Below are positions 36,292 to 62,139 of a stretch of DNA of 64,000 bases, one piece after another. How positions within the stretch are numbered: position 1 is the first letter of the stretch; each line of letters begins with the position of its first letter. The notes under the pieces were generated by a model. The model worked only from the letters and a program-made list of their open reading frames with translations. It ran no database searches and was not told the origin of the DNA. The position numbers and the translations under genes were made by a program. The stretch is from Kiritimatiellia bacterium (GTDB taxonomy: Bacteria; Verrucomicrobiota; Kiritimatiellia; RFP12; UBA1067), in assembly GCA_045598585.1 (NCBI GenBank), contig JAZLMG010000063.1, positions 3,205-67,204 of the forward strand, read 5' to 3'.

Positions 36292-36486
36292 ATGAGACCC
36301 GGACTTTGGCAGATTGTAATCGTTGTTCTCGTCGTCGCCGTTCTTTTCGGCGCGAAGAAGATTCCCGAACTCGCTCGCTCCCTCGGTAAGGCGAAGGGCG
36401 AATTCATGAAGGGGCTTAAGGAAGGCGAGAAGGAAGAGCCGTCTACGTCTGAAGACTCCGCCGTGCCAGGTGCCAAGGCAGAGTGA
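36292..36486 (+). CDS. tatA: twin-arginine translocase subunit TatA/E
   Basis: One TM helix followed by LFGAKKIPELARSLGKAKGEF. Confidence 0.9.
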   Translation: MRPGLWQIVIVVLVVAVLFGAKKIPELARSLGKAKGEFMKGLKEGEKEEPSTSEDSAVPGAKAE

Positions 36487-37940
36487 TCAGCGAGCTTATC
36501 CGAGAGCGGCTTAAGGCCGTCCCCACGAACCCCGGCTGTTACCTGATGCGTGACAGGCGGGGTCAAATCATTTATGTCGGGAAAGCGAAGAATTTAAAGC
36601 GCCGCGTCTCGAGTTATTTCCGCTCCGGCGCGAAGCATACGCCGAAAGTCCGTTCGATGGTCGAGACGATTTACGACTTCGAGTGGATGACGGTCAAGAA
36701 CGAAGCTGAATCGCTTCTAACCGAAGCGTCGCTTATCAAGAAATATAAGCCACACTTCAATATTTTGATGCGCGATGATAAGCGCTATCTCGCTTTGCGA
36801 GCCGATCCGAACGTCGATTTCCCGCGCTTTACCTGTGTTCGCATCGTGCGTGAGGATGGGGCGATTTACTTCGGGCCTTTTCCTTCGAGCCCGATTGTCA
36901 GAACCGCCAAAGACTTCGTCGAAAAGCGCTATGGAATCAGGGAGTGTGACTCGCTCTCACCTTGCGAAGAGGATCATAAGCATTGCCTCGCCGACATTAT
37001 TCGCACTTGTTCCGCGCCATGCCTTAAGAAAATCTCCAAAGACGAATACCGCGCACGTTTCGACGAGGCTTGCGCGTTTCTCAGGGGCGAGAGGCCGGGC
37101 GTTTTCGAAGAACTGAAAGCGAAGATGCTCGAGGCGGTCGAAAAAGAAAAGTTCGAGCGCGCGGCGGAATTTCGTGATTTGATTGCGGCCTTGAAAGAAA
37201 TGACGAAAGCTCACTTCGTCCGCAAGTCTCCGCACATGAAGGAAGAAGATGCGAAGAAGGGTATCGAGGAGCTTGCCGAAGCGATAGGACTCGAAAAACT
37301 GCCGCGCATAATCGAATGTGTTGATATTTCCAATTTGTTCGGAACTCACAACGTCGCTTCGCTTGTCGTCGCGCGAGATGGGCTTCCCGACGGGAGATAT
37401 TATCGTCACTTCAAGATCAAGAGTTTTGAAGGTGCGGACGATCCCCGAGCTATGGCCGAAGTCGTGCGCCGCAGATATGGACCCGATTCGACTTTACTTA
37501 AAACTAGCCCGAGAGCCGATCTCTATATTTGCGATGGTGGCATAACTCAGCTTCGTGCGGCTCGCGCGGTTTTCAAGGAACTCGGTATTGATGATATTCC
37601 GACCGTGGGCCTCGCGAAGCGCCTCGAGGAGATCGTCCTCGATGATGGGCGCGAGTCCATCTTGCTTCCACGTGACTCGGAAGCGCTCTTCGTCATTACC
37701 CGCCTTCGTGACGAAGCCCACCGCTTCGCTATCACATTCCACCGCTCCTTGCGCGAAAAGACGATTCGTGAATCGGTCTTGGACGAGGTTCCCGGCATCG
37801 GAGAGGCGAAGAAGGTGAAGCTCCTTAAGACTTTCAAGTCCATTTACGGCATCGCCAAAGCCAGTGTCGAAGACATTTCCAAAGTAGCCGGCGTTTCTCT
37901 CGAAATTGCATCCGCCGTCCTCCGCGCGGCTAAATCTTGA
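36483..37940 (+). CDS. uvrC: excinuclease ABC subunit C (compact form)
   Basis: GIY-YIG (GCYLMRDRRGQIIYVGKAKNLKRRV), a UVR motif (FERAAEFRD) and a C-terminal (HhH)2. GTG start overlaps the tatA stop. Confidence 0.85.
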   Translation: MISELIRERLKAVPTNPGCYLMRDRRGQIIYVGKAKNLKRRVSSYFRSGAKHTPKVRSMVETIYDFEWMTVKNEAESLLTEASLIKKYKPHFNILMRDDKRYLALRADPNVDFPRFTCVRIVREDGAIYFGPFPSSPIVRTAKDFVEKRYGIRECDSLSPCEEDHKHCLADIIRTCSAPCLKKISKDEYRARFDEACAFLRGERPGVFEELKAKMLEAVEKEKFERAAEFRDLIAALKEMTKAHFVRKSPHMKEEDAKKGIEELAEAIGLEKLPRIIECVDISNLFGTHNVASLVVARDGLPDGRYYRHFKIKSFEGADDPRAMAEVVRRRYGPDSTLLKTSPRADLYICDGGITQLRAARAVFKELGIDDIPTVGLAKRLEEIVLDDGRESILLPRDSEALFVITRLRDEAHRFAITFHRSLREKTIRESVLDEVPGIGEAKKVKLLKTFKSIYGIAKASVEDISKVAGVSLEIASAVLRAAKS

Positions 37941-39024: not shown

Positions 39025-39161
39025 GCTCATTCCCACCGATATACCTGCCATTCGCTTCGAACACCGACGAAAGAGTCGTATCTAAAGTTTTCGCAAACGT
39101 TAGAATTGACTTTGGTGGATGGGGTTGAATGTTGATTCAAACTTCGCTATGGTCAAAGTGA

Positions 39162-39180
39162 CCGAAATTTGGTATAATAT
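39162..39180 (+). promoter_or_regulatory. locus-specific promoter copy D (CCGAAATTTGGTATAATAT)
   Basis: Same 19-mer context as copies B and C; it drives only the GT2-like stub. Confidence 0.5.
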
Positions 39181-39197
39181 TACATACTAATACTCTC

Positions 39198-39299
39198 ATG
39201 ACCGACATAACCGTTATAATCCTAACCGGGAAGGAAGAGCTGCATATCGGGCGGTGGGGATATGGCAAAGTTGGGTGTGTTTGCCGCGCGGGCGCCTAA
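39198..39299 (+). pseudogene. 5' stub resembling a GT2 glycosyltransferase N-terminus
   Basis: MTDITVIILTGKEELHIGR resembles the GT2 start (xxVIIxTxNEExxIxR). The frame then decays and stops after 33 codons. Confidence 0.3.
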
Positions 39300-39552
39300 G
39301 CTGCCGCGCTAGGCGTGACTGAGCTGCGCGGGGACGACGAACTTTGCGCGGGCGCTAACAGGATCATGCTAGGCGAAACGTAGATATGCCGTCGGCGGTA
39401 TTCCGCGGGGCGTAGGAATTCTAGTTTCGTCTAATTCTGCGTGTCGGCATAGCCGACCTGCGGTTAATTAGTTCGTTCCTAACTCGTCCCTAATCCCCAG
39501 CCCCTAACCCCTAAATCCGATTTTCTTCCTTTCCATTCTTGCCGCGGAAGCG

Positions 39553-39650
39553 GGGAATATGGTATAATATCTCATAGAAAATGAGAACGCCGATATACGC
39601 TTATTATCGCCTATGGACGCGGTGTAGGTTTGTACACCACGTAGCGATAG
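39553..39650 (+). promoter_or_regulatory. promoter + conserved leader module, copy A
   Basis: TGGTATAAT (hexamer at 39563-39568); ATGAGAACGCCGATA...; hairpin GGTGTA(39621-26)/TACACC(39633-38); then CGTAGCGATAG. The short ORF at 39581-39664 ends 1 nt before the wzx-stub ATG. Confidence 0.55.
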
Positions 39651-39665
39651 CTTTAGTGTACTGAT

Positions 39666-40022
39666 ATGACCGCCAACCGCCGCATAGCCCTGGACATCGT
39701 TGCCACATACATGCGCCGGAGAAGCTTAGCTTCGAAGGGTAGGTGCTGCATGCACGACGAAGTCGCCCACAAGGGCCTGCGCAGATCGCGGCCTTCGGCT
39801 ATTTCCGCATTGCTCCAATCCGGGTATGCGTTGGTGTTGGGGTTGTTGGTTGCGCGGTGGGGTTTGCAGGTGCTTGGACATGTTGGTTATGGATTGTATG
39901 GCGTCGTCGGTGGGCTGACTGTTTTGATTCCATTCCTCCTTCTTCATCCTATCTCCCCCATCCCCAACACCGCGCCATCGGGTTTCGTGATTGGTGGTAT
40001 ATCACCGCGAAATTTGGTATAA
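39666..40022 (+). pseudogene. 5' fragment of a wzx-like flippase gene, interrupted by ~110 bp of unrelated sequence
   Basis: MTANRRIALDIVATY ... GYALVLGLLVARWGLQVLGHVGYGLYGVVGGL aligns to the intact Wzx N-terminus at 56058 (MTKSQRIVLNTIVSYGR..LGLFSSRWILKGLGVDDFGVFGVVGG) and, at the nucleotide level, to the stub at 51392. The frame then decays. Confidence 0.55.
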
Positions 40023-40101
40023 TAGTGGTCGTAAAATGAGAAGGACGATATACGATTATCACCAATTGACGCGGCGTGGATACACTTGCCGTGGAGCGGG
40101 A
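40005..40101 (+). promoter_or_regulatory. promoter + conserved leader module, copy B (upstream of the 814-aa methyltransferase)
   Basis: CCGCGAAATTTGGTATAATA; ATGAGAAGGACGATA at 40036; hairpin GGCGTG(40073-78)/CAC-tt-GCC(40083-90); then CGTGGAGCGGGA. Confidence 0.55.
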
Positions 40102-40165
40102 TATTGCCTACATTTTTCTTGCTACGGGGTCAGACTCCATAGAGCCCATAATGGAATTTTGAAAG

Positions 40166-42610
40166 ATGAAGAATTATTGTTTTATGAAATCGTATAATCC
40201 AAGCCATATCAATTATGCATTAGTTGAAGGTTCTAGACCGCCAATGTATAGTGCGATGAAATATTGGGGGCGAAAGCCTCATAATATTTGGAATGATTAT
40301 ATTGCACATTATTGTCCTCCAGATGGGGTTGTACTTGATCCTTTTGTTGGTAGTGGAATTACGGCGTTTGAAGCAATTAAGCTTGGTCGCAAAGTTATAG
40401 CTACGGATTTGAATCCTTTATCAACATTCGTCATTGAAGTGATGACCGCTCCATTCGACAAGGAGGTGTTTTGTACGGCGGCAGAGTCAATTATTAAAGC
40501 TATTGAAGTTGATAAGATTTATCGAGAGAATTATGTTAGAAAGATATTAGATAAAGAATATGTAGTTTACAATTATATTTGGAAGAAAGGGCGCGTTGAT
40601 TTTATCCATGCCAAGGACCAAGATGGAGAAGTGCTTGGCGTTTCAAGCGAAGCGTCCGATATTCAACGAGCTGAAAAGATGACGAGTCTAGACATCCCGT
40701 TCTGGTATCCTATCGATGACTTCCCGCGGAATCCATCCATAAACCACAATTTTATTACGAAGATTGGCGGATGTACGATTGATAAATTGTGGACAAAGCG
40801 CAACTTGTATTTATTAGCGAAGATGTTCCACTTGATTCAGCAAGTCGAGGATGAGGTTGTTGCTAATCAGTTAATGTATGCGTTTATTCACACTCTCCAT
40901 CTTGTTTCTAAAATGGTTGTGCCTCGGTCAGAGAAGGGTAATCGGGATTTCTCCGGTAGCTGGGGACGCGCGGACTATATGATTCGCAACCGTTCTATGG
41001 AGCAGAATCCTTTGATTGTGTTCAAGCGTTCTTGCTTTGATCGGCAAGGTATAGTGAATGCTTTATTAGATGCTAAGAACCAAATGAAGAAGGTGAAGTT
41101 AAATTGTCTTACACCTTCGAATCGGATGAAGAGCTCGGCGGATGTAAACTACGGGACAATTGATGTTGCTGATTTGCGGGATTATATTAAAGATGATTCA
41201 ATTGATTTCATATTGACAGATCCGCCTTATGGTGGGTTGGTTCAGTATATGGATTTGAGTATGGTTTGGCTAGTCTGGCTTCAACAGTTTAATGCACGAT
41301 TTCGTCCCGATGTTACGGGTGAAATTACGTTCAAGCGAGGTGTTGTTGATCGCGATACATATAAGAAACGATTGACAAATGCCTTTAAAAATGCCTATAG
41401 GGTCTTGAAGCCAGAACATTATCTCGTCGCGACTTTTCATAATCAACATATTGGAGAGTGGAATGACTTCGTTTGTGCTATTCGAGATGCGGGTTTTGTT
41501 TTTGAGAAGATGACTCATCAATACAATCGGCGTTCAGGAGAGTCGAATGTTGCGAATCCGTATGGGACAACTAGCTCGGATTATTATATTAGATGTAAAA
41601 AAACTTCCGCCAAGAGTGTCACGAGTGATAGGGATGAGTTGGCGGTGTATGTTGTGAATAGAACTAGGGCAATTCTCACAGAGCGTGGAGAGCCAACTCC
41701 CTTTGAATTTTTACTTAACGGATTATTGCCTGATATGTTGCAAGCTGGATATTTGCGGCCTGAAGAACCTGAAGTTGAATTGCGAAATATCCTAAACATC
41801 GAGGTAGGTTTGAATAAGATGTTTGTCGTTAATGCAAATCCTAAAAATCAAGGGGGAGATATCTTTTGGTTTAATCATCCAGAAAAGTATATAAATCATG
41901 CGAGTATGAGTCTTGCGGATCGTGTGGATACAACAGTAAGAGCATTGTTGCGCCGCAAGATAGCAGTAAAGTACGATGATATAGTTGCGGAGATTTTTAA
42001 GGAGTTTCCTAATGGGCAGACCCCTGACCCGAGAGGGCTCGTTAAAGTCGTTTCTCGATATGCGTCAAAGTCTAGTGGGAAATGGAAGTTGAATCCGGAT
42101 GTTGAACGTGACTGCTCTGAGCATACGCATATTATCGAGCTGTTGTGCAAGTTGTCAAAAAGAGCTGGCGTGGCTTCGCATGTTGGGAATCGCGAGAAAG
42201 GAGAATATGTTCGCGAGAATGTTAATCTTTGCGATTTGTCCACATTGAAGAATCTTGATAGTCTGACGGAATATGGTCGAGGGCAATTGTCGCGTATCGG
42301 AATGATTGATATGATATGGGTGGAGAAAGCGGCAAGTAGAATTGTCGCAGCATTCGAGGTGGAGAATTCAACGGATTTTATAGGCGCAATTGGTCGGGCG
42401 TCAAACATATCCGATTCTGTTCCAAAGTTTATGATTATTCCGAAAAGGCGCGAGGTAGAGTTCTTGCGTTTTCGAGATCCGTTATTTGTTGAAAGCTTTA
42501 GGACACAATCATGGAAATATCTGTTATATGAAGACATTGAGCGACTTGCCACGGCAAAAGTCGTTTCAATTTCAGATATTGGTAAATCGGCCAAGGATGT
42601 TGAGTTATGA
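40166..42610 (+). CDS. 814-aa N6-adenine/N4-cytosine DNA methyltransferase with a large internal TRD-like insert and a C-terminal PD-(D/E)xK-like domain
   Basis: YWGRKP motif, then motif I VLDPFVGSG (nt 40340-40357) followed by ATDLNP. About 290 aa downstream is motif IV LTDPPYGG (DPPY at nt 41219-41230). The C-terminal ~140 aa read HTHIIELL..G..IDMIWVE..RIVAAFEVENST. Confidence 0.8.
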   Translation: MKNYCFMKSYNPSHINYALVEGSRPPMYSAMKYWGRKPHNIWNDYIAHYCPPDGVVLDPFVGSGITAFEAIKLGRKVIATDLNPLSTFVIEVMTAPFDKEVFCTAAESIIKAIEVDKIYRENYVRKILDKEYVVYNYIWKKGRVDFIHAKDQDGEVLGVSSEASDIQRAEKMTSLDIPFWYPIDDFPRNPSINHNFITKIGGCTIDKLWTKRNLYLLAKMFHLIQQVEDEVVANQLMYAFIHTLHLVSKMVVPRSEKGNRDFSGSWGRADYMIRNRSMEQNPLIVFKRSCFDRQGIVNALLDAKNQMKKVKLNCLTPSNRMKSSADVNYGTIDVADLRDYIKDDSIDFILTDPPYGGLVQYMDLSMVWLVWLQQFNARFRPDVTGEITFKRGVVDRDTYKKRLTNAFKNAYRVLKPEHYLVATFHNQHIGEWNDFVCAIRDAGFVFEKMTHQYNRRSGESNVANPYGTTSSDYYIRCKKTSAKSVTSDRDELAVYVVNRTRAILTERGEPTPFEFLLNGLLPDMLQAGYLRPEEPEVELRNILNIEVGLNKMFVVNANPKNQGGDIFWFNHPEKYINHASMSLADRVDTTVRALLRRKIAVKYDDIVAEIFKEFPNGQTPDPRGLVKVVSRYASKSSGKWKLNPDVERDCSEHTHIIELLCKLSKRAGVASHVGNREKGEYVRENVNLCDLSTLKNLDSLTEYGRGQLSRIGMIDMIWVEKAASRIVAAFEVENSTDFIGAIGRASNISDSVPKFMIIPKRREVEFLRFRDPLFVESFRTQSWKYLLYEDIERLATAKVVSISDIGKSAKDVEL

Positions 42611-43500
42611 AGAAGACTAAAGTCGAAAAGAGGCCTCGCAAACCAAAGGAGCTTGAAAATAAACCCGGGAAGTACGATCAACGTAATTCTCTAAACGATC
42701 TTGACGGAAGGAGTTGGTTGCTTGCGACGCGGAGTTTCTGGATGTCGGAAACATCTAAAGAGGATAAAGCGGCTTATGCGCATCCAGCACCTTTTATGGT
42801 GAAAGACATAGAACGACTTATCAGTATGTTTACAAAAAGGGGTATGACGGTCCTTGATCCGTTTGTGGGGAGCGGTACCACAATGCTTGCCGCAACCAAC
42901 TTGGGCAGGCGCAGCATTGGAATTGATCTGAATCCTGAATACAAGGAAATTTTCCTTCGTCGAGTGGAAGGATTGAATTTAGTGTCTGGAACGGAATATA
43001 AGGTAGGGGATTCTCTGTCTGAGCTTGACCACGTAGGAGAGGTTGACTATGTTGTCACATCGCCACCTTATCATAACATTCTAAGGAACGATTCGAAGGG
43101 TACGAGGAATAAAAATGGTAAAGCGTACAGAATGTCGGCGCGTGATGGTGTTGAGTTCTATAGTGAGAGTATTAACGACTTGGGGAACTTTGATAAATAC
43201 ACAGATTTTTTGTGCGCGTTGAAAGCCATAATGATGAAGGTATATCGGTGTTTGAAATGCAAGCGGTATGCAACAATTGTCATCAGCGATTTCACAATTA
43301 ACAAGAAGGAAGTATGTGTGCAGGCTGATATTGTTAGAATGATGCAAGAAATCGGGTTTGAATTTAGTGGAACGACGGTTTTGCTCCAAAATGTCAAGCC
43401 GTTGTATCCGTTTGGATATCCATACGCGTATAAGATCAATCATCATCACCAAAACATAATTACTTTCAGAAAAGTGATAGATGGAAATAAGATTGTATAA
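42607..43500 (+). CDS. 297-aa N4-cytosine/N6-adenine DNA methyltransferase (SPPY type)
   Basis: AHPAPF...VLDPFVGSGTT...GIDLNP, then VVTSPPYHN (nt 43060-43071). ATGA start/stop overlap with the 814-aa gene. Confidence 0.85.
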   Translation: MKKTKVEKRPRKPKELENKPGKYDQRNSLNDLDGRSWLLATRSFWMSETSKEDKAAYAHPAPFMVKDIERLISMFTKRGMTVLDPFVGSGTTMLAATNLGRRSIGIDLNPEYKEIFLRRVEGLNLVSGTEYKVGDSLSELDHVGEVDYVVTSPPYHNILRNDSKGTRNKNGKAYRMSARDGVEFYSESINDLGNFDKYTDFLCALKAIMMKVYRCLKCKRYATIVISDFTINKKEVCVQADIVRMMQEIGFEFSGTTVLLQNVKPLYPFGYPYAYKINHHHQNIITFRKVIDGNKIV

Positions 43501-43512
43501 AAAGGTCTGAAC

Positions 43513-44304
43513 ATGCGATGTAAGGCTATAGATCAGTTTGTATCCGAAGTGATAGGCGTCATTGAGGCAGAACAAAAGAATCATCCGGAGGATGGCGCGG
43601 AGTTCTTTTTCCGTGGTGAGAGTTGTAATTATAGGCACCGTGGGGATCCTATGGCAGAGCTGGATGCTCAAATCCCCTGCTATGTAGATCGCGAAGAGGT
43701 ATGGCGTAAAAACGAACGCGAACTCTATCATGAGGCGCTGCGGCTGAATGTTGCATCGTTTCATGAGGATCGAACGATGGTAGAACGTATCTCGCGGATG
43801 CAGCACTATGGTCTTCCGACGCGTTTTGCGGACGCATCAACGAGCGCATTTGTAGCATTGCACTTTGCGCTTGGTGGAGGCAATCTTGATGTCGCAGGAC
43901 GCATGAAAGATTCTGAGGATGGCTTTGTGCGTGTGATGAAAGTCGCCAAGCGTAAGATGAAGACTTTTACCAGCGACATTATAACAGCGATTGCGCACTT
44001 GCCGCTTGTGAAGCAGGGAGATGTCAATCCGAGTGTCGTCAATGGATTGGAAGTCTTGCGTTATGAAGTTACAAACGAGCGCCCCGGTTTTTCGATGAAT
44101 ATTCGGCAGGATGATTCGGCTAAGTTGAAGGAGCTAGAAACGCAACTTCGCAAAGAGATTCAGCAAGTATGGGCCTTTAAGCCTATTTGGAATACGCCGC
44201 GAATTCGCAATCAGAGCGGACTTGCTGGATGCCGGCTTTATCAGCGCTATACACTCTTCGTATTCCTTGATAATACGCGGCAATTCCGCAACGAAATAGG
44301 TTGA
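43513..44304 (+). CDS. FRG-domain protein with the C-terminus replaced by junction sequence
   Basis: FFFRGES...MQHYGLPTRFADASTSAFVALHFAL matches the FRG-domain signature (FRGq...aQHyGlPTrlLDwT). Sensible sequence ends near IRNQSGLA (~44224), where it meets the IS remnant on the opposite strand. Confidence 0.65.
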   Translation: MRCKAIDQFVSEVIGVIEAEQKNHPEDGAEFFFRGESCNYRHRGDPMAELDAQIPCYVDREEVWRKNERELYHEALRLNVASFHEDRTMVERISRMQHYGLPTRFADASTSAFVALHFALGGGNLDVAGRMKDSEDGFVRVMKVAKRKMKTFTSDIITAIAHLPLVKQGDVNPSVVNGLEVLRYEVTNERPGFSMNIRQDDSAKLKELETQLRKEIQQVWAFKPIWNTPRIRNQSGLAGCRLYQRYTLFVFLDNTRQFRNEIG

Positions 44305-44559
44305 ACAAGGGCATCCTACCGATACCCATAGCTTACGCGCGTTCTCGAGATCTTCGTCCGAGTAAGTCTTTCCTCTGCCTTTTCTTTCTCGATAACGGAT
44401 ATTCCCGGTCATAAGTTTGATGACATACTTCCTGGTGAAGTCCAAAGTCTCGCAAACTTCATTGAGAATGCGAGTTCGTTTTGCTGTAGACGATACGGCG
44501 TAAGCACGACGTTTTTCGGCTACATATTCGGCGATTGATTTTCTTGACATTGTGCACAT
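44256..44559 (-). mobile_element. IS remnant: N-terminal HTH part (~100 aa) of a DDE (rve-type) transposase; the catalytic domain is missing
   Basis: MSRKSIAEYVAEKRRAYAVSSTAKRTRILNEVCETLDFTRKYVIKLM...RKGRGKTYSDEDLENARKLWVSVGCPCSTYFVAELP follows the usual HTH - RGRP-xY - C(G)KRL pattern of such transposases. No DDE region follows. GTGCAC-containing repeats lie at 44553-44640. Confidence 0.55.
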
Positions 44560-44702
44560 GCTCCTATTTTACCACGGTGCACAGTATTTGACGAATGGGT
44601 ATCATCAAAAAAGTGCATCTTGCAATTTCGGGTGCACACTATTATAACGAATCGCGACATTAACCTTTTACGAGCGACTATCTTCTCAATCTGCCGAAAA
44701 TA

Positions 44703-44711
44703 TGATACAAT
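44703..44711 (+). promoter_or_regulatory. extended -10-like box (TGATACAAT) upstream of the small ORF / DUF4145 pair
   Basis: TGATACAAT lies 23 nt before the ATG at 44735; GGAGGTG lies between them. Confidence 0.4.
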
Positions 44712-44734
44712 GATATTGGAGGTGTTTTTTAAGT

Positions 44735-44842
44735 ATGAATGGAAGAACAGAGAATCTCAGATTGAGTAATCTGAAGCGTTCGAGTTCCGAATTCGACGAA
44801 CGCTACGCCGAAGTCAGCAAACACAAAAAACATTTGCACTAA
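44735..44842 (+). CDS. 35-aa small ORF with a strong RBS (below the track cutoff)
   Basis: GGAGGTG lies 8 nt upstream. The product is MNGRTENLRLSNLKRSSSEFDERYAEVSKHKKHLH. It ends 33 nt before the DUF4145 gene, which has its own AAGGAG RBS. Confidence 0.3.
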   Translation: MNGRTENLRLSNLKRSSSEFDERYAEVSKHKKHLH

Positions 44843-44875
44843 GTTAATTAGGTGCGTATTAAAAGGAGAACGTAA

Positions 44876-45562
44876 ATGATACAAATTGATTTTGATTCCC
44901 ATACGTATATTTGTCCATTTTGTGGACATGCTCAGGCATTTGGAGGAAATTTTGGGGAAAGAAACATTGGGTTGTTCTATGATGCATATTCGATGAATCT
45001 TACAGCGGAGAACGGACGCTCATGTTTGACAGTTCGCTGGTTTACTTGCTCGAATCGCAACTGCGGGAGGACTTGCCTGTCGACGTTTAACCGACTAACT
45101 GGCGCGCAACAAGACATATATCCAACGGCAACATATAAGCATTATCCTAAATACATTCCATCGCAGATCAGATCCGACTATGAGGAGGCGTGTCAGATTA
45201 TTAGTATGAGCCCAAAGGCTGCAGCTACGCTTTTCCGCCGGTGTTTACAAGGAATGATTCGCGATTTTTGGGGCATTAAAAAATCGCGTCTTATTGATGA
45301 AATTGAAGCTCTTAAAGACAATATTCCGACTACACAATGGAAGGCTATTGATGCGTTGCGAAAGCTTGGTAATATTGGTGCTCATATGGAGAAGGACGTC
45401 GATGTGATTATAGATATTGATAAGGGAGAGGCAGAACGTTTGCTACAGTTAATAGAAATTCTAATTGAGAAATGGTATATTGCTCGACATGATGAGGAAT
45501 CGCTTTATCAAGCAATAACCGGTGTTGCAGAAGACAAAGTAAAAGTTCGTAAGAAAGATTGA
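44876..45562 (+). CDS. Zn-ribbon + DUF4145 (HEPN-like) domain protein
   Basis: N-terminal CPFCGH ... CSNRNCG. The C-terminal part reads DYEEACQIISMSPKAAATLFRRCLQGMIRD ... ALRKLGNIGAH, matching the DUF4145 pattern including R..GN...H. Confidence 0.7.
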   Translation: MIQIDFDSHTYICPFCGHAQAFGGNFGERNIGLFYDAYSMNLTAENGRSCLTVRWFTCSNRNCGRTCLSTFNRLTGAQQDIYPTATYKHYPKYIPSQIRSDYEEACQIISMSPKAAATLFRRCLQGMIRDFWGIKKSRLIDEIEALKDNIPTTQWKAIDALRKLGNIGAHMEKDVDVIIDIDKGEAERLLQLIEILIEKWYIARHDEESLYQAITGVAEDKVKVRKKD

Positions 45563-45785
45563 TTAAGGCTCAACACTAAGCATGCTCTAAATGCTTGATT
45601 CATGATTAGCTATGCGGTATGTGTTGCATCATAAATGCGCGCAAAAGGGTATAAATGGGCGCAAGCATTACGATAGCTTAGATACCTGAATGTGTTGCGA
45701 CCTGAAGATGACGCCTGTTTATTGGCAAAGGCCGAAAGTGTCTCTATCCAATGATATTAGGAGTGTTTATATTTCAAAGCGAATA

Positions 45786-45794
45786 TGGTATAAT
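45786..45794 (+). promoter_or_regulatory. locus-specific promoter copy E (TGGTATAATATAAG)
   Basis: It shares GGTATAATATAAG with copy C. A GAAGG RBS and the ATG at 45815 follow. Confidence 0.45.
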
Positions 45795-45814
45795 ATAAGT
45801 CAGTGAAGGTTGTT

Positions 45815-46924
45815 ATGGCTAATAAAATTTCGCGAAGAGAATTTGTTTCTTCTATTGTTGCACTCGGCATTATGCCGAATGTGTTGGCGTGTGTAGACGG
45901 AGACGGTCGTGCTGTCCTTAATGGTGTTGCGCGTAAGAAACGCTCATTGGGACAGTATTTTACTGAAGGTTCTTGCTGGCTTCAGCCTCAAGTAGCGGAC
46001 TTTATTCGTAATTCGAAATGTCATATAGCCTATGATCCATTTGCTGGTAGTGGAAGTCTTTTTAGTCCTGTCACAAATTCCATTGCGAGCGTAACCGAAG
46101 TTGAGGGATTGGATATTGATCCAACTTTGGGATGGCCTGTTAACGATTCTCTTATTGGCATACCGCATAAAGAAGGGTCGATAATTATAACCAATCCACC
46201 TTATATTTCTAACTTTTCAGCCTCAAGAAAACGGATAGGAGATGATTTAAAGAAATATTTTGATTTAACTTGCTACGATGATGTCTATCTGCTCGCACTT
46301 CAACGAATGTTAGAGGCGCAATCTTATGTCGTTGCCATTATTCCTGAAACATTTATTAATTCACCGTTCAGGGATAAGCAACTCCTGCGCTCGATTACAA
46401 TATTGGAAGAGAATCCTTTCTTGGATACTGATACTCCTGTTGTGGTTGTTTGTTTTGATTCCATCCCCAAGTCGTATAAAGACATAAGCATTTACAAAGG
46501 ATATGAATACGCATGCTCTTTGCAAGATGTCGAGGATTGTCGACTGGTGCCTGAAAATATAGTGCGTATGAAATTTAATGAGCCTACAGGTTGGCTTGGC
46601 GTGAGATGTGTAGACTCGACTAATCCAAATAATAAGTTGCATTTTGATTTTAAAGAAAATATCGATTATGATTGGGATAAGGGTATAAAGGCGTCGTCCC
46701 GTTTGATGACGCTCGTTTCTATAGATATCCCTTGTGATAAAAGGCAAGTTTTTATCGACGAGTGCAATCAAGAGCTAGAGCAAATTAGAGAAAAATCTCA
46801 CGATATAATGTTGAGTCCGTTTAAAGGCAATATGAAAAACGGGGTGCGTCGTCGCAGATTAGATTTTCAAACTTGTCGAGCAATTATTGAACGAGCATAC
46901 AAGGTGACAGTCTCTACATATTAA
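45815..46924 (+). CDS. gamma-class N6-adenine DNA methyltransferase (NPPY) with an anomalous Tat/lipobox-like N-terminus
   Basis: GQYFTE, motif I YDPFAGSGSL, and motif IV IIITNPPY (nt 46193-46204). The N-terminus is MANKISRREFVSSIVALGIMPNVLAC. The track ORF starts at the GTG at 45803. Confidence 0.8.
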   Translation: MANKISRREFVSSIVALGIMPNVLACVDGDGRAVLNGVARKKRSLGQYFTEGSCWLQPQVADFIRNSKCHIAYDPFAGSGSLFSPVTNSIASVTEVEGLDIDPTLGWPVNDSLIGIPHKEGSIIITNPPYISNFSASRKRIGDDLKKYFDLTCYDDVYLLALQRMLEAQSYVVAIIPETFINSPFRDKQLLRSITILEENPFLDTDTPVVVVCFDSIPKSYKDISIYKGYEYACSLQDVEDCRLVPENIVRMKFNEPTGWLGVRCVDSTNPNNKLHFDFKENIDYDWDKGIKASSRLMTLVSIDIPCDKRQVFIDECNQELEQIREKSHDIMLSPFKGNMKNGVRRRRLDFQTCRAIIERAYKVTVSTY

Positions 46925-46970
46925 TTATGAGGAAATGATTAATTAGTTTTGGATCTTCGGAGGGAAGGCC

Positions 46971-48005
46971 ATGACAAATCTAGAGCTTTTTAAATATTCT
47001 GGTAAAAATCCTGAACCGTTGATAGATAAAGCTTATGTTCGTGATGAAGAATGCATTATTCCTATATCGCTATCAATAAAAGACTCTTCAGCAAAATCTT
47101 TGTTAGTTGAGAAGAATACTCGTCTTATACAGTTGATATCAACCTTTTGTTATTTAAGGGAGAAAGGTCGAGAGGATGATTGTATTGAAGTTCACGATTT
47201 GATTAGCGAGGTTATTGAAATTCTTACTAAAATAGAAAATATTAATCTTTCGCCATTTTCTCAGTTTTTCTTAGTGTATGATACGACTTATGATTCGTTT
47301 CTTGAGTATAGTCTTGAGGAGCAGAAGAATTTCATTCGTAAAATACTTTGCGCCTATTGTGATAAAAGGCATTCAATATATTTATCGCATGGATATACTA
47401 ATACGATTCTTCAGGTTGTTAAAGATAGCTATTCTCATAAAGGTAATTCAACGGCGGGTATTGATAAAGTAAAAAAGATATTAAATAATAATGGATTTCG
47501 CTATAAGGAAAAGGTTGACGATATAGGCGATAAATATTATTTCTTTCCGGATAAAGGCGGTTCGAATTTGTTTTCTAAATTTGTTAAAGAGCATAAACTC
47601 AAAGCCAAGTTTGTTAGTAGCAGGCAGGGGAAGCTTCCTGATATAGTATTGCGATATAAAGACGAATATTACATTATTGAGTTGAAGCATATTAAATCTT
47701 CGGGAGGAGGACAAGATAAACAATTGAGCGAAATAATTGATTTTGTTGGTTCTTTTGAGGATGATAATTCCAAAGTGCATTTCGTCTCGTATCTAGATGG
47801 CCTATATTCAAATAAATTACACAATAATGATTTATGGTACAAAAAGAAGGCGCCTGACAAGTTGAGCAAAATTGGGAAGCAGTACGATTCAATAAAGAAG
47901 AACCTTGAAAAGAACAAAGGCAATTATTTCCTTAATACTAAAGGTCTTGAAAAATTCATGAGATTGCTAGTCGAAGGAAAGTTGGAGGAAAGTGCCAGTG
48001 AATAA
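46971..48005 (+). CDS. PD-(D/E)xK restriction endonuclease-like protein, paralog 1
   Basis: KLPDIVLRYKDEYYIIELKHIKSSGGGQDKQ gives a PD-x12-ExK motif. It aligns along its whole length with the next gene. Confidence 0.6.
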   Translation: MTNLELFKYSGKNPEPLIDKAYVRDEECIIPISLSIKDSSAKSLLVEKNTRLIQLISTFCYLREKGREDDCIEVHDLISEVIEILTKIENINLSPFSQFFLVYDTTYDSFLEYSLEEQKNFIRKILCAYCDKRHSIYLSHGYTNTILQVVKDSYSHKGNSTAGIDKVKKILNNNGFRYKEKVDDIGDKYYFFPDKGGSNLFSKFVKEHKLKAKFVSSRQGKLPDIVLRYKDEYYIIELKHIKSSGGGQDKQLSEIIDFVGSFEDDNSKVHFVSYLDGLYSNKLHNNDLWYKKKAPDKLSKIGKQYDSIKKNLEKNKGNYFLNTKGLEKFMRLLVEGKLEESASE

Positions 48006-48963
48006 TATAGATTTGTTTTTGTATTCCGGAGAACACCCCGAGCCGATTATCGATCCATACTATAATCGTGAGAAGGTTGTTATTCCTCTTTCTGCATTCC
48101 AAACAAATGAGTTAGTTGAGAAAAATGCTAGATTGATTCAGTTAATTACTGTTTTCTCTTACTTTATTGGAGAAGGCAAGACACTGTCCAATCCTGATAT
48201 GCACGGTTTAATCGATGAGGTAATAAAAATCTTAAAGGAGACGGAAGGCATAAACTTATCTCCTTTTTCTCAATTCTTTATGGTCTATAACTCCACCTAT
48301 GGTTCGTTTCTGACATATGGATATAAGGAGCAGCGCCAGTTTATTTACGAGATGCTTCATCTTTATGTAAAAGAACGGCACAGTATGTATCTAAGTCATG
48401 GATATTCTAACAGCACACTTCAAGTTGTTTGTGACAATTATTCGCATAAGAGAAATTCTAAGACTACTATTATAAAAATCTGTGATCTTCTTAATGGTGT
48501 TGGGTTTATCCATGATAGTGATGGAGTAGGACTCTTATCTAAAAATTATTATTTTTTACCCGACAAAGGTGATAAGAAAGCATTTGATTTATTTAAGCAA
48601 CAGCATGGTGTTGTTATGGAGTCCGCTAAGCATGAGCAGAACAAATTGCCTGATATGGTTCTAGTTGATAATGATGAGTGCTATGTTATAGAAATGAAGA
48701 GTATGAAAGGCGTTGGTGGTGGACAAGACAAACAGCTGACAGAGGTTATTAACTTCATTCGATATTCTGAAGCTGATCAACATGTGCATTATGTAGTTTT
48801 TCTTGACGGAGAGTATTCAAATATTCTACATGCTGCTATCAAGCAACCTAAAGTTGAGTGCCAATATAAAGATATAATTTCTTGTCTTCAAATGAATCCT
48901 GGAAATTACTTTCTTAACTCCTCTGGATTTAGTAAGTTTATACACGAGCGATTAAATGTATAA
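47992..48963 (+). CDS. PD-(D/E)xK restriction endonuclease-like protein, paralog 2
   Basis: KLPDMVLVDNDECYVIEMKSMKGVGGGQDKQ. It shares blocks with paralog 1 (EKNxRLIQLI, INLSPFSQFF, YLSHGY, LQVVxDxYSHK, YYFxPDKG). The GTG start has a GGAGGA RBS and overlaps paralog 1 by 14 nt. Confidence 0.6.
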   Translation: MPVNNIDLFLYSGEHPEPIIDPYYNREKVVIPLSAFQTNELVEKNARLIQLITVFSYFIGEGKTLSNPDMHGLIDEVIKILKETEGINLSPFSQFFMVYNSTYGSFLTYGYKEQRQFIYEMLHLYVKERHSMYLSHGYSNSTLQVVCDNYSHKRNSKTTIIKICDLLNGVGFIHDSDGVGLLSKNYYFLPDKGDKKAFDLFKQQHGVVMESAKHEQNKLPDMVLVDNDECYVIEMKSMKGVGGGQDKQLTEVINFIRYSEADQHVHYVVFLDGEYSNILHAAIKQPKVECQYKDIISCLQMNPGNYFLNSSGFSKFIHERLNV

Positions 48964-49004
48964 AGATTTTTCTCCTTTTTTTACGTTTTGCTATGGTCTA
49001 ATAG

Positions 49005-49099
49005 TCCGAAATTTGGTATAATATAAGCATAAGATGAGGAAGACGATAGAGATTTATCGCCAATTGACACGGTGCAGATTTGCACTCCGTGGAGCGGGA
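49005..49099 (+). promoter_or_regulatory. promoter + conserved leader module, copy C (upstream of the 724-aa gene)
   Basis: TCCGAAATTTGGTATAATA; ATGAGGAAGACGATA at 49034; hairpin GGTGCA(49071-76)/TGCAC-t-CC(49081-88); then CGTGGAGCGGGA. Confidence 0.55.
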
Positions 49100-49196
49100 G
49101 CTTTGAAGTGCCGTGGGGATTTGCTACAGGGCTCTAGTATGATGACGCATATTTATTACTTATTCTGAAGATAAGGATTTTAAATATAACACGGGG

Positions 49197-51371
49197 GTGC
49201 TTGTGAATCAAAATGTTATAAAACGAATTTTGTCACGTATGACAAAAGAGGAATTCGAATCTCTTGTGCCAATCGTGCTAAAGGCGGCGAGTGGAATGGT
49301 TCCAGTGTGTGTGGACGGATCGAACGATGGTTCCGTTGATTATCATTTGTATAATGGCTTGAACAAGTCACGAATAGTGGTGCAAACTACGGATAACTGG
49401 CAGAACCTTGAGCGCAAGATTAAGGGTAATATGTCGGATGTTGCTGGGCGGGCAGATATAGACATATATTATATGATGGTAAAAGAGGTTGTGTCGAATG
49501 ATGTAAAAGAAAGATTAGAACAGCAGGCTCTTGATAAACATCACTTGATGATGAAGATTCTGGGGGCTAACGAGGTTTCAAGTTTTATCCTCAGATATGA
49601 TTTGATCGATGATTTGTTTAGGTTATCGCACACCGTATCCGACGAGCCAAGTGGTAAGCGAATTCAGCAACCTGAAGTGATGCTACACATGTACTTGTCA
49701 ATGAGTAGTGATAGTAGGGATCTCAATCAAGAGATGATTGACTCAACATTGCGATTCATTCTTTTCAATAAACCACAACAGGGGCGGCAAGAGCTGGCGA
49801 ATGAAGTATTGCAATACTTGCGCCTCCCAGAGCTCAGGCAGTTAGATGTAGTTGGACGTATCGAATCCTTGAGATCTAAAGGTGTATTTGATGAATGTGA
49901 AGGACAGCTAGATTTGTCCTCCGCTGCGAGAAAAGAAATTGATCAATTGGTAGGTGATTATGATGCGGAGTTATCCCTATTTTCCGACATTTGCGTTTCA
50001 ACGATAAAGGAAATTGCAGGTAGAGATTTTGCAATTTCGAATCAAAAAGAGTTTGCGACGTTATTAGCGCGATGCTATGTCTCTTGTTATCTTGATGTAG
50101 TAAAAAGGTCTGATTATGAATTGGATAGCGAGATATTTGCGTCTCCGGTGCTTAATTCGCCATTGACACAAATCAAGTCAATGCTGTTGAAAGATGGTAT
50201 CGCGCAACATAAGTTAGATGAATGCGTGAACACACTTGTTCTTCGTGCGTCAGGTAATTCGTTGGTGAAACGTTTAGCACAATCTGTGGTTTATGTTGCG
50301 ATTCGGGATTATTCAAGCCGCAATTCGCCAGCCGTGTTTAACACTGATAATTGGGGCTCGGTATCAGTTTACGTTGATGCGGCTGCTCTAATGCCATTTC
50401 TCGTATCCTCGCTTTTTGAGCAAGGTAGATTTGCTCGAAATGAGACATGTTTGGCAATTTCTACGATTCAGAAGACTCGATGCAAGTTGTTAGTGCCATT
50501 CGATTATGTTGATGAGGCATCGTCTCATCTGATTGCTGCGAGATGGTATTGTGAAAATGAGGAAGGCTTTGAGGCGGACTTTGAATTTGTTCCGAACGCA
50601 TATGTCTCCTCGTACTACAAGATGAAAAAGTGTGGTATCGAAGTTCCTGATACCCTGAGAGAATATCTTAGCTTGTTTTGCGAGGATCTATTCAAGTTTG
50701 ATAGCAGTCAGTATTCCTACAAATCAGTTGTCAGAGCATCGATTTCGACGTTAGCGCGATATTATGGCGTTGAGATGACGGAATTTAAGGACGCTTTAGA
50801 CGAGCAAGATATTGCTTATTGTGACGAGTGGAAAGAATTCCTGAAAAAGAAGAAAACTGACTGGCGACTTATAAGGCATGACGCATCAGTTTTGTCACAT
50901 ATATATCACAAAGGGAGAACGCAATTGGGTAGAAACGTTCTCGTTACTTGGGATAATTCGCTTCTTAGGGCTGACCGGACACTTCGTAGGGATATCTGGA
51001 TAGTGACCCCTGTTGATATGGCGGACTTGGTAAGTGTGTCGTTTAATGATGAAAATTATGACTTGATGGCATTGTCGCATGCTGTTGCGTCGGTTACGAC
51101 GTCGAGCAAGGAAATGGCTTATGGGCACATCCTTGAGAAAATAATGCTTATGTGCAAAGATAAAAAGATGGATTGGAAATGTAGGTTGGAGATACAGAGA
51201 ATAAGGGACGAGTTCTTTAGTTATTGTGATTCGAATGATAGTAAAGATTGTAGCATCGAATCTGAGGAATGCGAAAAGCGTACCATGGAGATACTTGATA
51301 AATCTGGCTTCTCCGAAGAAGAGTCAGGAGTGGAGTTGACAGGCGGAGAGTCTCAAGATATCAACGAGTGA
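49197..51371 (+). CDS. 724-aa orphan: Mrr/REase-like N-terminal domain, wHTH-like middle, PIN-like C-terminal region
   Basis: FESLVPIVLKAASGMVPVCVDGSNDGSVDY...RIVVQTT resembles the Mrr_cat pattern but lacks the Lys. The C-terminal region contains VSVYVDAAALMPFL, LLVPFDYVDEASSHL and NVLVTWDNSLL, which resemble PIN acidic motifs. There is no P-loop. The start is ambiguous (GTG at 49197 or 49203, ATG at 49239). Confidence 0.45.
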   Translation: MLVNQNVIKRILSRMTKEEFESLVPIVLKAASGMVPVCVDGSNDGSVDYHLYNGLNKSRIVVQTTDNWQNLERKIKGNMSDVAGRADIDIYYMMVKEVVSNDVKERLEQQALDKHHLMMKILGANEVSSFILRYDLIDDLFRLSHTVSDEPSGKRIQQPEVMLHMYLSMSSDSRDLNQEMIDSTLRFILFNKPQQGRQELANEVLQYLRLPELRQLDVVGRIESLRSKGVFDECEGQLDLSSAARKEIDQLVGDYDAELSLFSDICVSTIKEIAGRDFAISNQKEFATLLARCYVSCYLDVVKRSDYELDSEIFASPVLNSPLTQIKSMLLKDGIAQHKLDECVNTLVLRASGNSLVKRLAQSVVYVAIRDYSSRNSPAVFNTDNWGSVSVYVDAAALMPFLVSSLFEQGRFARNETCLAISTIQKTRCKLLVPFDYVDEASSHLIAARWYCENEEGFEADFEFVPNAYVSSYYKMKKCGIEVPDTLREYLSLFCEDLFKFDSSQYSYKSVVRASISTLARYYGVEMTEFKDALDEQDIAYCDEWKEFLKKKKTDWRLIRHDASVLSHIYHKGRTQLGRNVLVTWDNSLLRADRTLRRDIWIVTPVDMADLVSVSFNDENYDLMALSHAVASVTTSSKEMAYGHILEKIMLMCKDKKMDWKCRLEIQRIRDEFFSYCDSNDSKDCSIESEECEKRTMEILDKSGFSEEESGVELTGGESQDINE

Positions 51372-51391
51372 TTGTTGTTCGGGCTATTATA

Positions 51392-51502
51392 ATGACCGCA
51401 AATCGTCGCATATTCCTGAATATCATTGCCACATACGGGCGCTCCCTGTATGCGTTGGTGATTGGGGTTGTTGCCGGGCGGAGGACTTTTATGTCGAGAT
51501 GA
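51392..51502 (+). pseudogene. second 5' stub of the wzx-like flippase gene (30 codons, then out-of-family sequence and a stop)
   Basis: MTANRRIFLNIIATYGRSLYALVIGVVAGR shows clear nucleotide similarity to 39666-39710 plus 39826-39860 and matches the intact Wzx N-terminus at 56058. Confidence 0.5.
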
Positions 51503-51517
51503 AGGGGGAGGGGCTCT

Positions 51518-52399
51518 ATGAGTGAATATACATGCTTTATTGATGAGAGCGGGTGTAAGCAACGTGCGCGGACCCCGATTGCCGACCCTTTTGACATTGG
51601 GGTTGCGGTGGGAGTTGTCGTTCCTTCTGAAAAGGAAAAGAGTTTTAGTCAAGAAATTGCATCAGCTATTCTTTCCTTGGATGTTGAACTTAAGGATGAT
51701 ACGCATGTTACAGATGTTTCTTCTGTTTTGCAAGAGCCTGTTCGGAAGGGAGTATATGATGTAGTTCGCCGTTACGAAGCTGAATTGTATTGGCAAGCAA
51801 TATCCGCTTCCGGATTTCAGCGGTGGGAAGTTGGCATAACTGATGCCGCAGTCAATTCTGCGAAGAATGACTCCAATCCTAATATTGCAATAGTCGGCAA
51901 TCCTGAAAATCCGAGTGCTCATGCAACATTGATCGCAGGAGTGATGGAGAAAGCACTTGCATGTTATGATCAGGTAATGTTTATGACGGATGAGGTTGAT
52001 GCGAAGATATTGAATGAGGCTCAGAATGAAGTTGATGAAGTATTTCGATCCGGCCCTACTACTTATACCGTTAACGCTTATGATAAATGTGCAAGAACAA
52101 GGTTGACGGGGAAAATTGTCAGTACTTGCATAGGGCTTGAGCCTGTTGCTGAAAAAAAATGGGATTTGAAGATTCTTCCCAAGAACAATGGAGGTATTCT
52201 CGCAGCCGATGTTATAGCTAATGCGCTATTATATCATTTGAATGCGCATGTTAAATCGGGAGGGGAGACGTTGAATGATAAGGCCGCAATCAGAGGCTTT
52301 GATCTGGCTGAGTTATGTCGTTGCGCAGAGGGTGGTTGTCCTGATATTGGAGATACTCTTTATGCATTGCGGAAGTGCACGGGAGGTGTTGATGCATGA
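51518..52399 (+). CDS. DUF3800-family protein
   Basis: The N-terminus YTCFIDESG is the DUF3800 hallmark. GGGGAGGGG RBS. Its stop overlaps the next start (ATGA). Confidence 0.65.
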   Translation: MSEYTCFIDESGCKQRARTPIADPFDIGVAVGVVVPSEKEKSFSQEIASAILSLDVELKDDTHVTDVSSVLQEPVRKGVYDVVRRYEAELYWQAISASGFQRWEVGITDAAVNSAKNDSNPNIAIVGNPENPSAHATLIAGVMEKALACYDQVMFMTDEVDAKILNEAQNEVDEVFRSGPTTYTVNAYDKCARTRLTGKIVSTCIGLEPVAEKKWDLKILPKNNGGILAADVIANALLYHLNAHVKSGGETLNDKAAIRGFDLAELCRCAEGGCPDIGDTLYALRKCTGGVDA

Positions 52400-53106: not shown

Positions 53107-53109
53107 GCG

Positions 53110-61395: not shown

Positions 61396-61417
61396 AGTTA
61401 TTTCCTTTCTTCTTTCT

Positions 61418-62137: not shown

Positions 62138-62139
62138 AC

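Follow-up and report, generated by a model that had tools for sequence, protein, structure and literature searches.

In Bacteroides fragilis, the opsX element recognised by UpxY spans about 40 bp and consists of a pause-hairpin region and a non-template-strand hairpin with 5ʹ-GCG-AGC stems at the pause; the hairpin of the nascent RNA comes to within −9 to −16 of the pause (Saba et al. 2024, PMC11685472). In the RfaH system, 12 nucleotides (nt) of ops suffice and no pause hairpin is involved (Zuber et al. 2018, PMC5995543). Here we analysed a 64,000-nt stretch of Kiritimatiellia DNA (contig JAZLMG010000063.1, positions 3,205 to 67,204; hereafter the window), in which three copies, A, B and C, of a promoter-leader module stand in front of unrelated genes. 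The module appears to work in the manner of an ops or opsX leader but belongs to neither described system, because the ops consensus and the upxY-upxZ gene order are both absent and its candidate partner, a NusG paralog, scores below the UpxY cutoff. With somewhat better than even confidence, our analysis suggests that the module is a leader that recruits a processivity factor and that is crossed by a near-leaderless upstream open reading frame (ORF).

The first-pass annotation of the window had described the three copies as a shared series of elements with a hairpin that changes in sequence and keeps its pairing, or else as a short ORF. Direct reading and RNA folds agreed with it on the order of the elements and on the hairpins, which form in all three copies with a 2-nt bulge in B and in C. 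A profile built from the three copies with nhmmer returned them as the sole full copies in the 64 kb (each E ~1e-28), with a mean column identity of 75% in a MAFFT alignment. B and C, judged by eye to be about three-quarters identical, were 74% identical over 70 nt, and the same alignment gave the exact 3-nt gap that had been claimed for A relative to B and C. Copy A was also unlike the other two in its promoter-proximal part (GGGGAATATGG) and in the spacer between the hairpins (CCTATGGAC). The elements of the three copies are as follows.

39539–39568, plus strand: promoter of copy A, TTGCCG, 18 nt and the extended −10 box TGGTATAAT at 39560–39568
39581–39664, plus strand: upstream ORF of copy A, 27 codons and TGA (39662–39664), with the ATG 12 nt past the −10 hexamer
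39591–39609, plus strand: hairpin 1 of copy A, CGATA ... TATCG
39617–39642, plus strand: hairpin 2 of copy A, the candidate pause hairpin, ACG.GGTGTA [GGTTTG] TACACC.CGT, with arms GGTGTA at 39621–39626 and TACACC at 39633–39638
39644–39653, plus strand: ops-like motif of copy A, GCGATAGCTT, GCG-NN-AGC mini-hairpin kept, ending at the family-invariant T (39653)
40015–40023, plus strand: extended −10 box of copy B, TGGTATAAT, read directly
40036–40197, plus strand: upstream ORF of copy B, 53 codons, overlapping the start of the methylase gene at 40166
40046–40061, plus strand: hairpin 1 of copy B, CGATA ... TATCA
40070–40093, plus strand: hairpin 2 of copy B, CGCGGCGTG [GATA] CAC tt GCCGTG, 3ʹ end at −13 from the predicted pause T
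40096–40105, plus strand: ops-like motif of copy B, GCGGGATATT, AGC arm degraded, invariant T at 40105
49014–49022, plus strand: extended −10 box of copy C, TGGTATAAT, read directly
49034–49168, plus strand: upstream ORF of copy C, 44 codons
49044–49059, plus strand: hairpin 1 of copy C, CGATAG [AGAT] TTATCG
49068–49091, plus strand: hairpin 2 of copy C, CACGGTGCA [GATT] TGCA ct CCGTG, 3ʹ end at −13 from the predicted pause T
49094–49103, plus strand: ops-like motif of copy C, GCGGGAGCTT, GCG-NN-AGC mini-hairpin kept, invariant T at 49103

In copy A, the upstream ORF spans both hairpins and the ops-like motif, and the 3ʹ end of hairpin 2 lies at −12 from the predicted pause T. The coordinates and peptides given before for the three ORFs were right, as was the placement of the TGA of A 1 nt before the ATG of a truncated wzx (flippase) gene at 39666 and the overlap in B. 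The downstream genes are indeed unrelated, being this wzx stub for A, a methylase of 814 amino acids (aa) for B and a 724-aa protein for C.

Two strict patterns modelled on the window copies had no matches: genome contigs lacked GGTATAAT..ATGAG..CGATA..TTATC, and metagenome and viral contigs lacked ATGAG..CGATA..TTATCNCCNATNGAC, so the window's own subfamily, as these patterns define it, was not found outside the window. Exact-protein look-ups with the glycosyltransferase and UvrC of the window gave no result. A rebuilt wzx-stub peptide returned twelve stub-like proteins on short contigs, and three of these contigs carried divergent copies of the module whose likeness to A, B and C was confined to the promoter, the distance to the ATG and the hairpin followed by CCRYGKRGCGRKA, a motif absent elsewhere in the roughly 100 kb first examined. 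The scan pattern consisting of TGGTATAATA, 9–12 nt, ATG, 45–75 nt and CCRYGKRGCGRKA matched 79 metagenome contigs, 9 genome contigs and no viral contig. Seven of the nine genome contigs are labelled Kiritimatiellae and come from yak, goat, sheep and human (Hadza) gut. A covariance model recognised 127 copies, about 30 of them outside the scan pattern. In all, more than 120 further copies were recovered from gut and rumen Kiritimatiellae contigs. When a contig had at least two copies, all stood on one strand, 1–7 kb apart, with up to 4 in 13 kb. No Rfam family matched at or near its gathering score in the window copies and ten main-family contigs; below threshold there were only a few chance matches in the window and microRNA-precursor matches to long hairpins elsewhere in the loci.

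Two contigs had labels from other groups (L numbers denote contigs and loci of the search). L093, a genome contig labelled Clostridia, was a chance match that the covariance model does not recognise, and it was rejected. L098, from a metagenome-assembled genome labelled Lachnospiraceae, carries a true module at 432–529 followed by DUF6922 and AbiEii genes; it is probably a mis-binned Kiritimatiellae contig, the alternative being horizontal transfer.

Across 87 unique copies the layout is (AAATA)TGGTATAATA, 9–12 nt, ATG, a variable 5ʹ part with ten or more unrelated subfamilies, and a near-constant 41-nt core, RTGAGGTATTCGGCTGCATACCCCACGGGGCGAGAGCGTAT, in which a hairpin is followed by GGCGAGAGCGT. 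Relative to the motif end, positions −35 to +6 are highly conserved and the information content is zero from +7/+8; on the upstream side it begins only about 20 nt before the −10 box. At +4, a position outside the search pattern, a T was present in 122 of 122 copies, including about 30 that were found by the covariance model only. In the main family hairpin 2 reads GUGAGGUAU [UCGGCUGC] AUACCCCAC and ends at −14 from this T, compared with −12/−13 in A, B and C. The sequence of hairpin 1 varies among subfamilies, with pairing in the same columns. The mini-hairpin within the motif that follows is likewise kept: C3:G8 is CG in 110 of the 119 distinct copies and G4/A7 is GA in 113, while G2:C9 is GC in 96, GT in 4 and AT in 3. 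Its loop is AG in the main family and includes AT and GG among the window copies.

The covariation proposed for the hairpin from three copies held in the whole family. Hairpin 2 was paired in 94–96% of cells (95% over the 119 distinct copies), both-side changes occurred in six of its eight pairs, none of 500 shuffles reached the observed values, and slid controls were only 24–61% paired. The column pair 80–97 was GC in 76, AU in 10 and GU in 1 copies in one alignment (A2) and GC in 99, AU in 12 and GU in 3 in another (A3), so that the A-U swap is found in 10–12 copies, which belong to several 5ʹ subfamilies, together with G-U intermediates. One alignment was fitted to the covariance model and is therefore biased towards the structure; the MAFFT alignment agrees with it.

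Symmetric changes of this kind can also be read at the level of the DNA duplex. Hairpin 2 would then be an inverted repeat (GGTAT, 8 nt, ATACC) serving as the operator of an XRE-family helix-turn-helix (HTH) protein encoded upstream, which would repress or block transcription; a palindromic operator would show symmetric half-site changes as well. In 27 contigs the module does directly follow an HTH_3 gene of 83–89 aa whose TAA stop falls within the −10 box (TATAAT), as in L053 (8373–8639), L038 (5047–5304) and L068 (4556–4810). But this gene is absent beside A, B, C and most other copies, the repeat lies 60–85 nt downstream of the promoter, and the G-U intermediates of the stem keep RNA pairing while breaking DNA symmetry. 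The operator would also leave the invariant single-stranded 3ʹ motif and the open frame unexplained, and we consider it very improbable.

The 41-nt core was then compared with the described leader elements. Like opsX, it is an element of about 40 nt in a leader, with a candidate pause hairpin followed by a GCG-AGC mini-hairpin, and if the invariant T is the pause, the distance of −12 to −14 falls in the range of the opsX hairpin. Further likenesses are a candidate partner that is a specialised NusG paralog, with UpxY here as the best family match, and gut hosts with many variable surface-polysaccharide loci. The organisation is different. In Bacteroides, each locus has a upxY-upxZ pair of its own, which comes first behind its opsX, whereas the module repeats one conserved core many times per genome, is not followed by such a pair, and no UpxZ was seen. 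The opsX of Bacteroides lies behind an invertible promoter; for the module none was seen, and the promoters of A, B, C and a promoter-only copy, Z, lack flanking inverted repeats (searched over 37.9–58.8 kb). Unlike opsX, the module also has restriction, defence and toxin-antitoxin cassettes among its targets, has an ORF across the site, and belongs to a host of the Planctomycetes-Verrucomicrobia-Chlamydiae (PVC) superphylum with sigma-70-type extended −10 promoters.

With Escherichia coli ops12 (GGCGGTAGCGTG), GGCGAGAGCGTA agrees at 9 of 12 positions, keeping C3:G8, G4/A7 and T11. A C3:G8 mini-hairpin that presents two loop bases is found here too; of the window copies, A and C retain it and B does not. 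The ops consensus GGCGGTAGnnTG is matched only in part, at 9 of 12 positions in the main family and at 8, 7 and 6 in A, C and B, respectively. The likeness to RfaH and ops extends to the proposed arrangement, with a single trans-acting factor for numerous dispersed operons, often of horizontal origin, and a short leader element that ends at a pause. The wider JUMPstart sequence offers a similar parallel, since the module stands just upstream of many polysaccharide gene starts and is conserved only as far as the putative pause. All 5,426 E. coli genomes contained the JUMPstart 39-mer, which lay upstream of rfbB in the one match examined. In contrast to the module, which is crossed by an open frame, ops of E. 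coli lies in untranslated leaders.

LoaP, found in Firmicutes and others, is a third specialised NusG paralog that goes with a conserved leader hairpin before long accessory operons. It counters intrinsic terminators, and its gene adjoins its target operons.

The first-pass annotation had pointed to a specialised NusG paralog as a thing to look for, and one was found in these bacteria. Searches with RfaH and NusG (phmmer) returned ORFs of 163–171 aa in L050 and L043, on the same strand as the module and 0.6 kb and 1.25 kb upstream of it, respectively. Both ORFs carry an NusG N-terminal and a KOW domain. Among the NCBIfam models UpxY scored best (77–86 bits), followed by RfaH (49–57), LoaP (30–39) and NusG (25–37). 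The paralog is not an RfaH ortholog (TIGR01955, 57 bits at most against a cutoff of 144.5), and it is likewise far from LoaP (NF033641, cutoff 125). There were 859 homologs of the paralog, one of them named by NCBI 'UpxY family transcription antiterminator [Kiritimatiellae bacterium]'. The link between this factor and the module is circumstantial.

On the basis of this likeness, we propose that each copy would mark the start of a transcription unit in two layers. The first layer would be the lineage's generic strong promoter with its extended −10 box TGGTATAATA, and the second a leader of about 90 nt whose conserved 3ʹ core would be the loading site for a NusG paralog of the UpxY/RfaH type. 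The polymerase would first transcribe hairpin 1, the variable one. Hairpin 2, which is conserved, would come next and act as an RNA pause hairpin, and the polymerase would pause at the invariant T, 12–14 nt beyond hairpin 2. The paused bubble would expose the GCG-NN-AGC mini-hairpin of the non-template strand to be read by the paralog, which would then ride with the polymerase and make it resistant to pausing and to Rho and terminator signals, allowing passage through long polysaccharide operons and AT-rich foreign genes for defence, restriction and toxin-antitoxin functions. The ATG, 10–13 nt past the −10 hexamer, would be the entry for a first ribosome that trails the polymerase to the pause and helps to release it, possibly with coupling through the paralog. 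The transcription start site, the pause (by analogy), binding of the paralog, antitermination and translation of the upstream ORF are the parts of this scheme that we infer. An antitermination or processivity-type leader had been suggested before, and as far as sequences can tell the analysis supports it: the family is far beyond chance and as to layout the core does match opsX and ops, while the function itself is presumed.

Several observations weigh against this scheme. With regard to the element, the loop bases G5 and T6 of ops, which are read by RfaH, are not conserved, position 12 is usually A and not G, and the AGC arm of the mini-hairpin is lost in copy B. The 9/12 match to ops was noticed post hoc, with a chance that we estimate at about 0.01 within the core, and the wider match to JUMPstart is marginal (chance about 0.05–0.1). 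The fold energies of A, B and C taken singly are not significantly better than those of shuffles (z −0.8 to −1.9), and since the main compensatory pair lies within 17 nt, a single haplotype could have spread by recombination. With regard to the protein, the two paralogs score 77 and 86 bits with the UpxY model NF033644, below its curated cutoff of 100, no NusG paralog is encoded within the window, and the paralog gene is not downstream of modules as upxY is downstream of opsX in Bacteroides. Six more distant contigs (L100–L105) carry the paralog gene in varied contexts with no module within 10 kb, and physical linkage therefore rests on two contigs. With regard to translation, the gap of 10–13 nt between the −10 hexamer and the ATG is somewhat longer than the 7–10 nt of the clear leaderless-type genes, which makes translation of the upstream ORF uncertain.

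The competing view, that a short ORF is what the module conserves, was examined in 90 aligned copies. From the ATG to the end of the core, frame 0 had a stop in none of them (0/90), frame +1 had one in nearly all, and frame +2 had one in 38, and between the four main classes the length changes in steps that are multiples of 3. Main-family copies encode M-x(9-14)-(V/M)RYSAAYPTGRER(I) in this frame, which closes at variable points beyond it. If the peptide were all that matters, control would lie in the progress or stalling of a ribosome on the short ORF and the two hairpins, or in the delivery of ribosomes to downstream genes without start signals of their own, and no NusG paralog would take part. 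The open frame and the length classes are in keeping with such leader-peptide control, as is the string RYSAAYPTGRE, which lies in one frame in about 80 of 87 copies from at least 10 5ʹ subfamilies. So are the 11 contigs in which the module ORF continues in frame, with no separate start codon, into the downstream protein, which is mostly DUF6922.

The pattern of change speaks differently. There is no excess of variation at the third codon position, which is even the least variable one in the two largest subfamilies. The replacements R to K and P to S occur together exactly as the G-C to A-U swap of the stem predicts, A, B and C lack the peptide but retain the nucleotide motif in another frame than the main family, and 7 of the 90 aligned copies have single-nucleotide frame changes with the core kept. 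The stop of the ORF lies anywhere from −17 to +360 nt from the downstream start, so that coupling is not consistent, and no terminator follows the hairpins. In view of the codon pattern and the frame change in the window copies, what is under selection is a nucleic-acid element plus an open frame, not the peptide, and leader-peptide control by itself seems improbable to us. The short-ORF reading was nonetheless partly right, in that its frame is open throughout and near-leaderless starts are common; it does not exclude the leader reading and forms a real second layer of the module.

The evidence on gene starts comes from ordinary genes. In relatives, the called genes nadA, divIC and scpA begin 9–11 nt past a −10 hexamer (L001 2260 and 6691, L002 6313), and in the window long ORFs (trpS-like, nadA and others) begin 7–10 nt past one (4672, 15626, 28739, 33170 and, on the minus strand, 23659). 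As many ordinary genes start 7–11 nt after a TGnTATAAT box, leaderless or near-leaderless mRNAs seem common in the lineage, and by the same token an ATG so close to the −10 box as that of the module is likely to be seen by ribosomes.

We also considered, as a bolder and on the whole unlikely extension of the leader reading, that the module is where polymerase and ribosome are assembled into a coupled complex on foreign genes. In a host with much leaderless translation, a ribosome entering at the transcript's 5ʹ end would pursue the polymerase to a programmed pause, where a single UpxY/RfaH-like factor would dock on the non-template-strand mini-hairpin and tie both machines together. This would explain an open frame across the site despite a freely varying peptide. 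If it were true, one regulator would license the whole accessory genome, from surface polysaccharides to restriction-modification, toxin-antitoxin and anti-phage functions, with each cassette carrying the same plug-in promoter-leader, and anti-phage defence would come under the control of a NusG paralog.

A leader-peptide attenuator would combine a short ORF with alternative hairpins ending in an intrinsic terminator. The ORF is present, but neither the window copies nor the consensus core have a T-run terminator behind hairpin 2. We also rejected a small-RNA gene and an RNA antitoxin, as the core is not followed by a terminator and every copy is directed into the gene that comes next.

The genes headed by the modules are diverse. 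The 71 first downstream ORFs fell into 43 unrelated clusters, none of which contains a NusG-like protein. They include Schlafen/AlbA_2-HATPase proteins (with DUF4062-HATPase proteins elsewhere in the same operons), AbiEii with DUF6922, AAA_21/AAA_15 and AAA_13 ATPases and a HipA-like kinase, as well as RhuM, ORF6N, Bro-N, PD-(D/E)XK, ASCH, DUF3990 and 23S-rRNA-IVP. The polysaccharide targets comprise NDP-hexose dehydratase, UDP-glucose dehydrogenase and long operons containing wzx, with long co-oriented polysaccharide operons in L012, L021, L052, L073 and L081. The polysaccharide operons that the earlier proposal had in mind are therefore present, accompanied by defence and toxin-antitoxin genes. 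The module ORF runs into DUF6922 and is followed by an AbiEii toxin gene in L046, L098, L086, L071, L050, L066, L028 and L063, and in these cases the presumed antitoxin takes its start codon and its initial ~25 residues from the module.

Such co-oriented arrays of short unrelated cassettes, many of them for toxin-antitoxin or defence functions and split by a repeated structured element, are reminiscent of integrons. The module might accordingly be a recombination junction, either an attC-like site or a patch of homology for cassette exchange, with both its conservation and its 3ʹ edge arising from recombination. The sharp end of similarity at +7 and the spacing of copies at 1–7 kb in one orientation fit this idea. 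The same downstream gene also occurs after different 5ʹ subfamilies (four for DUF6922, three for HipA), stubs pile up near the window copies (a GT2 stub and two wzx stubs) with related wzx stubs on many short contigs, and truncated cores occur in L025 and L037. Unlike an integron cassette, however, the module stands at the 5ʹ end of each unit with a promoter and a start codon, and neither attC-type R/L boxes nor an integrase were found; searches with XerD and Hin (phmmer) gave no tyrosine or serine recombinase homolog in the window and ~570 kb of module-bearing sequence (nothing below E = 0.4). A recombination site would need no promoter, start codon, open frame or fixed orientation to downstream genes, and loop and single-stranded parts are conserved as much as the stems. 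We judge a recombination junction to be quite improbable as the reason for the module. Exchange by homologous recombination at the 41-nt core probably happens, as a consequence of the conservation and not as its cause.

If the leader reading is right, control of the ops/opsX type by NusG paralogs would reach the PVC superphylum, beyond Proteobacteria and Bacteroidota, and would cover restriction-modification, toxin-antitoxin and anti-phage cassettes in addition to polysaccharide and virulence operons. The family's more than 120 natural versions of a single recruitment site, with a shared core, many 5ʹ halves and several loop variants of GCG-NN-AGC, would be ready data on how factors read a paused transcription complex. 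An open frame across such a site is unusual and would make a link between ribosome loading and factor recruitment directly testable. The covariance model also marks operon starts and the edges of variable islands in the poorly annotated genomes of gut Kiritimatiellae.

The window was placed in Kiritimatiellae by its UvrC homologs. It carries core genes up to uvrC (36483–37940) and a variable region beyond. A relative with 85% UvrC identity has scpA/scpB right behind uvrC, in place of the island; in a 99%-identical relative the contig stops 330 nt past uvrC, so that the synteny at uvrC is uninformative. The G+C content falls from about 55% to 33–45% over 40.0–52 kb, where a low-GC defence island (40000–52000) lies inside a polysaccharide locus. 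The promoter-only copy, the stubs and the gene runs headed by B and C are as follows.

39143–39180, plus strand: copy Z, a promoter with no leader, TGGTCA, 17 nt and TGGTATAAT, found with a repeat finder (promoter scan 10/12 plus TG)
ATG at 39198, plus strand: GT2-like N-terminal stub downstream of Z, 33 codons (MTDITVIILTGKEELHIGR...), together with Z occupying 39143–39299 of the window
39666–40022, plus strand: wzx (flippase) N-terminal stub 1, degraded, with an in-frame insertion of ~100 nt at 39717–39818
40166–45562, plus strand: operon headed by B, the left part of the defence island
49197–57599, plus strand: co-oriented gene run headed by C, with the orphan gene, wzx stub 2, polysaccharide genes and a flippase
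51392–51499, plus strand: wzx stub 2, the N-terminal stub of a Wzx flippase gene

Copy Z is 87% identical to the upstream part of C (48987–49024). The box TGGTATAATA alone is the organism's general strong promoter, and it also stands leader-free at 23681 and 45786. Three promoters of the same strand (Z, A and B) and two gene stubs lie within 900 nt. Upstream of copy A (39470–39530) there are tracts rich in C and T in which CTAAC/CCTAA units recur, and the related contig L039 has similar ones between its modules (1060–1130 and 1460–1540).

The operon headed by B, in which the 814-aa N6/N4 DNA methylase comes first, encodes in all two methylases, one of them PglX-like/Type II, together with an FRG protein (PDC-S15) and a DUF4145 protein (PD-T7-4); of the two N6/N4 methylases in the island, one is PglX-like. 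The island also contains an Eco57I-like methylase, for which a separate leaderless-type promoter stands at 45786, and two tandem BsuBI/PstI-like nuclease paralogs (46971–48005 and 47992–48963).

Downstream of C, the run consists, in order, of the 724-aa orphan, wzx stub 2, a 293-aa ORF, an IspD-like cytidylyltransferase, an alcohol dehydrogenase, a ribulose-phosphate epimerase, a 431-aa ORF and a full Wzx/MatE-like flippase (56058–57599), and its orientation and spacing suggest that it forms one operon. The polysaccharide genes beyond the defence island are of the ribitol type. Neither the 724-aa ORF (49197–51371) nor the 293-aa ORF (51518–52399) had a match in Pfam or PADLOC, and the former sits between leader C and wzx stub 2 as if inserted there. 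The best reading of the window copies is that A is a relic before a degraded wzx, B heads a restriction/defence operon, and C heads the orphan and the ribitol-type polysaccharide genes.

Proteins of 78–98 aa that resemble the wzx stubs occur on many short metagenome contigs (loci L003–L010 and L039 1547–1700). Some are fused to a GT2 N-terminus (L003), and others overlap at ATGA with an XRE gene, behind which the module stands (L004–L006). Near-perfect hairpins of ~100 nt with weak microRNA-precursor matches were seen in L039 (834–941), just downstream of a module, and between the genes of module-headed operons in L085 (3433–3535) and L089 (1069–1171), and they may be terminators or insulators between cassettes. 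At the far end of the window, a block of minus-strand ORFs of mixed G+C content (59790–63953) includes a DUF3987 protein. We take DUF3987 to be a domain of primase-like proteins of mobile elements, and the block may be a mobile element that borders the variable locus.

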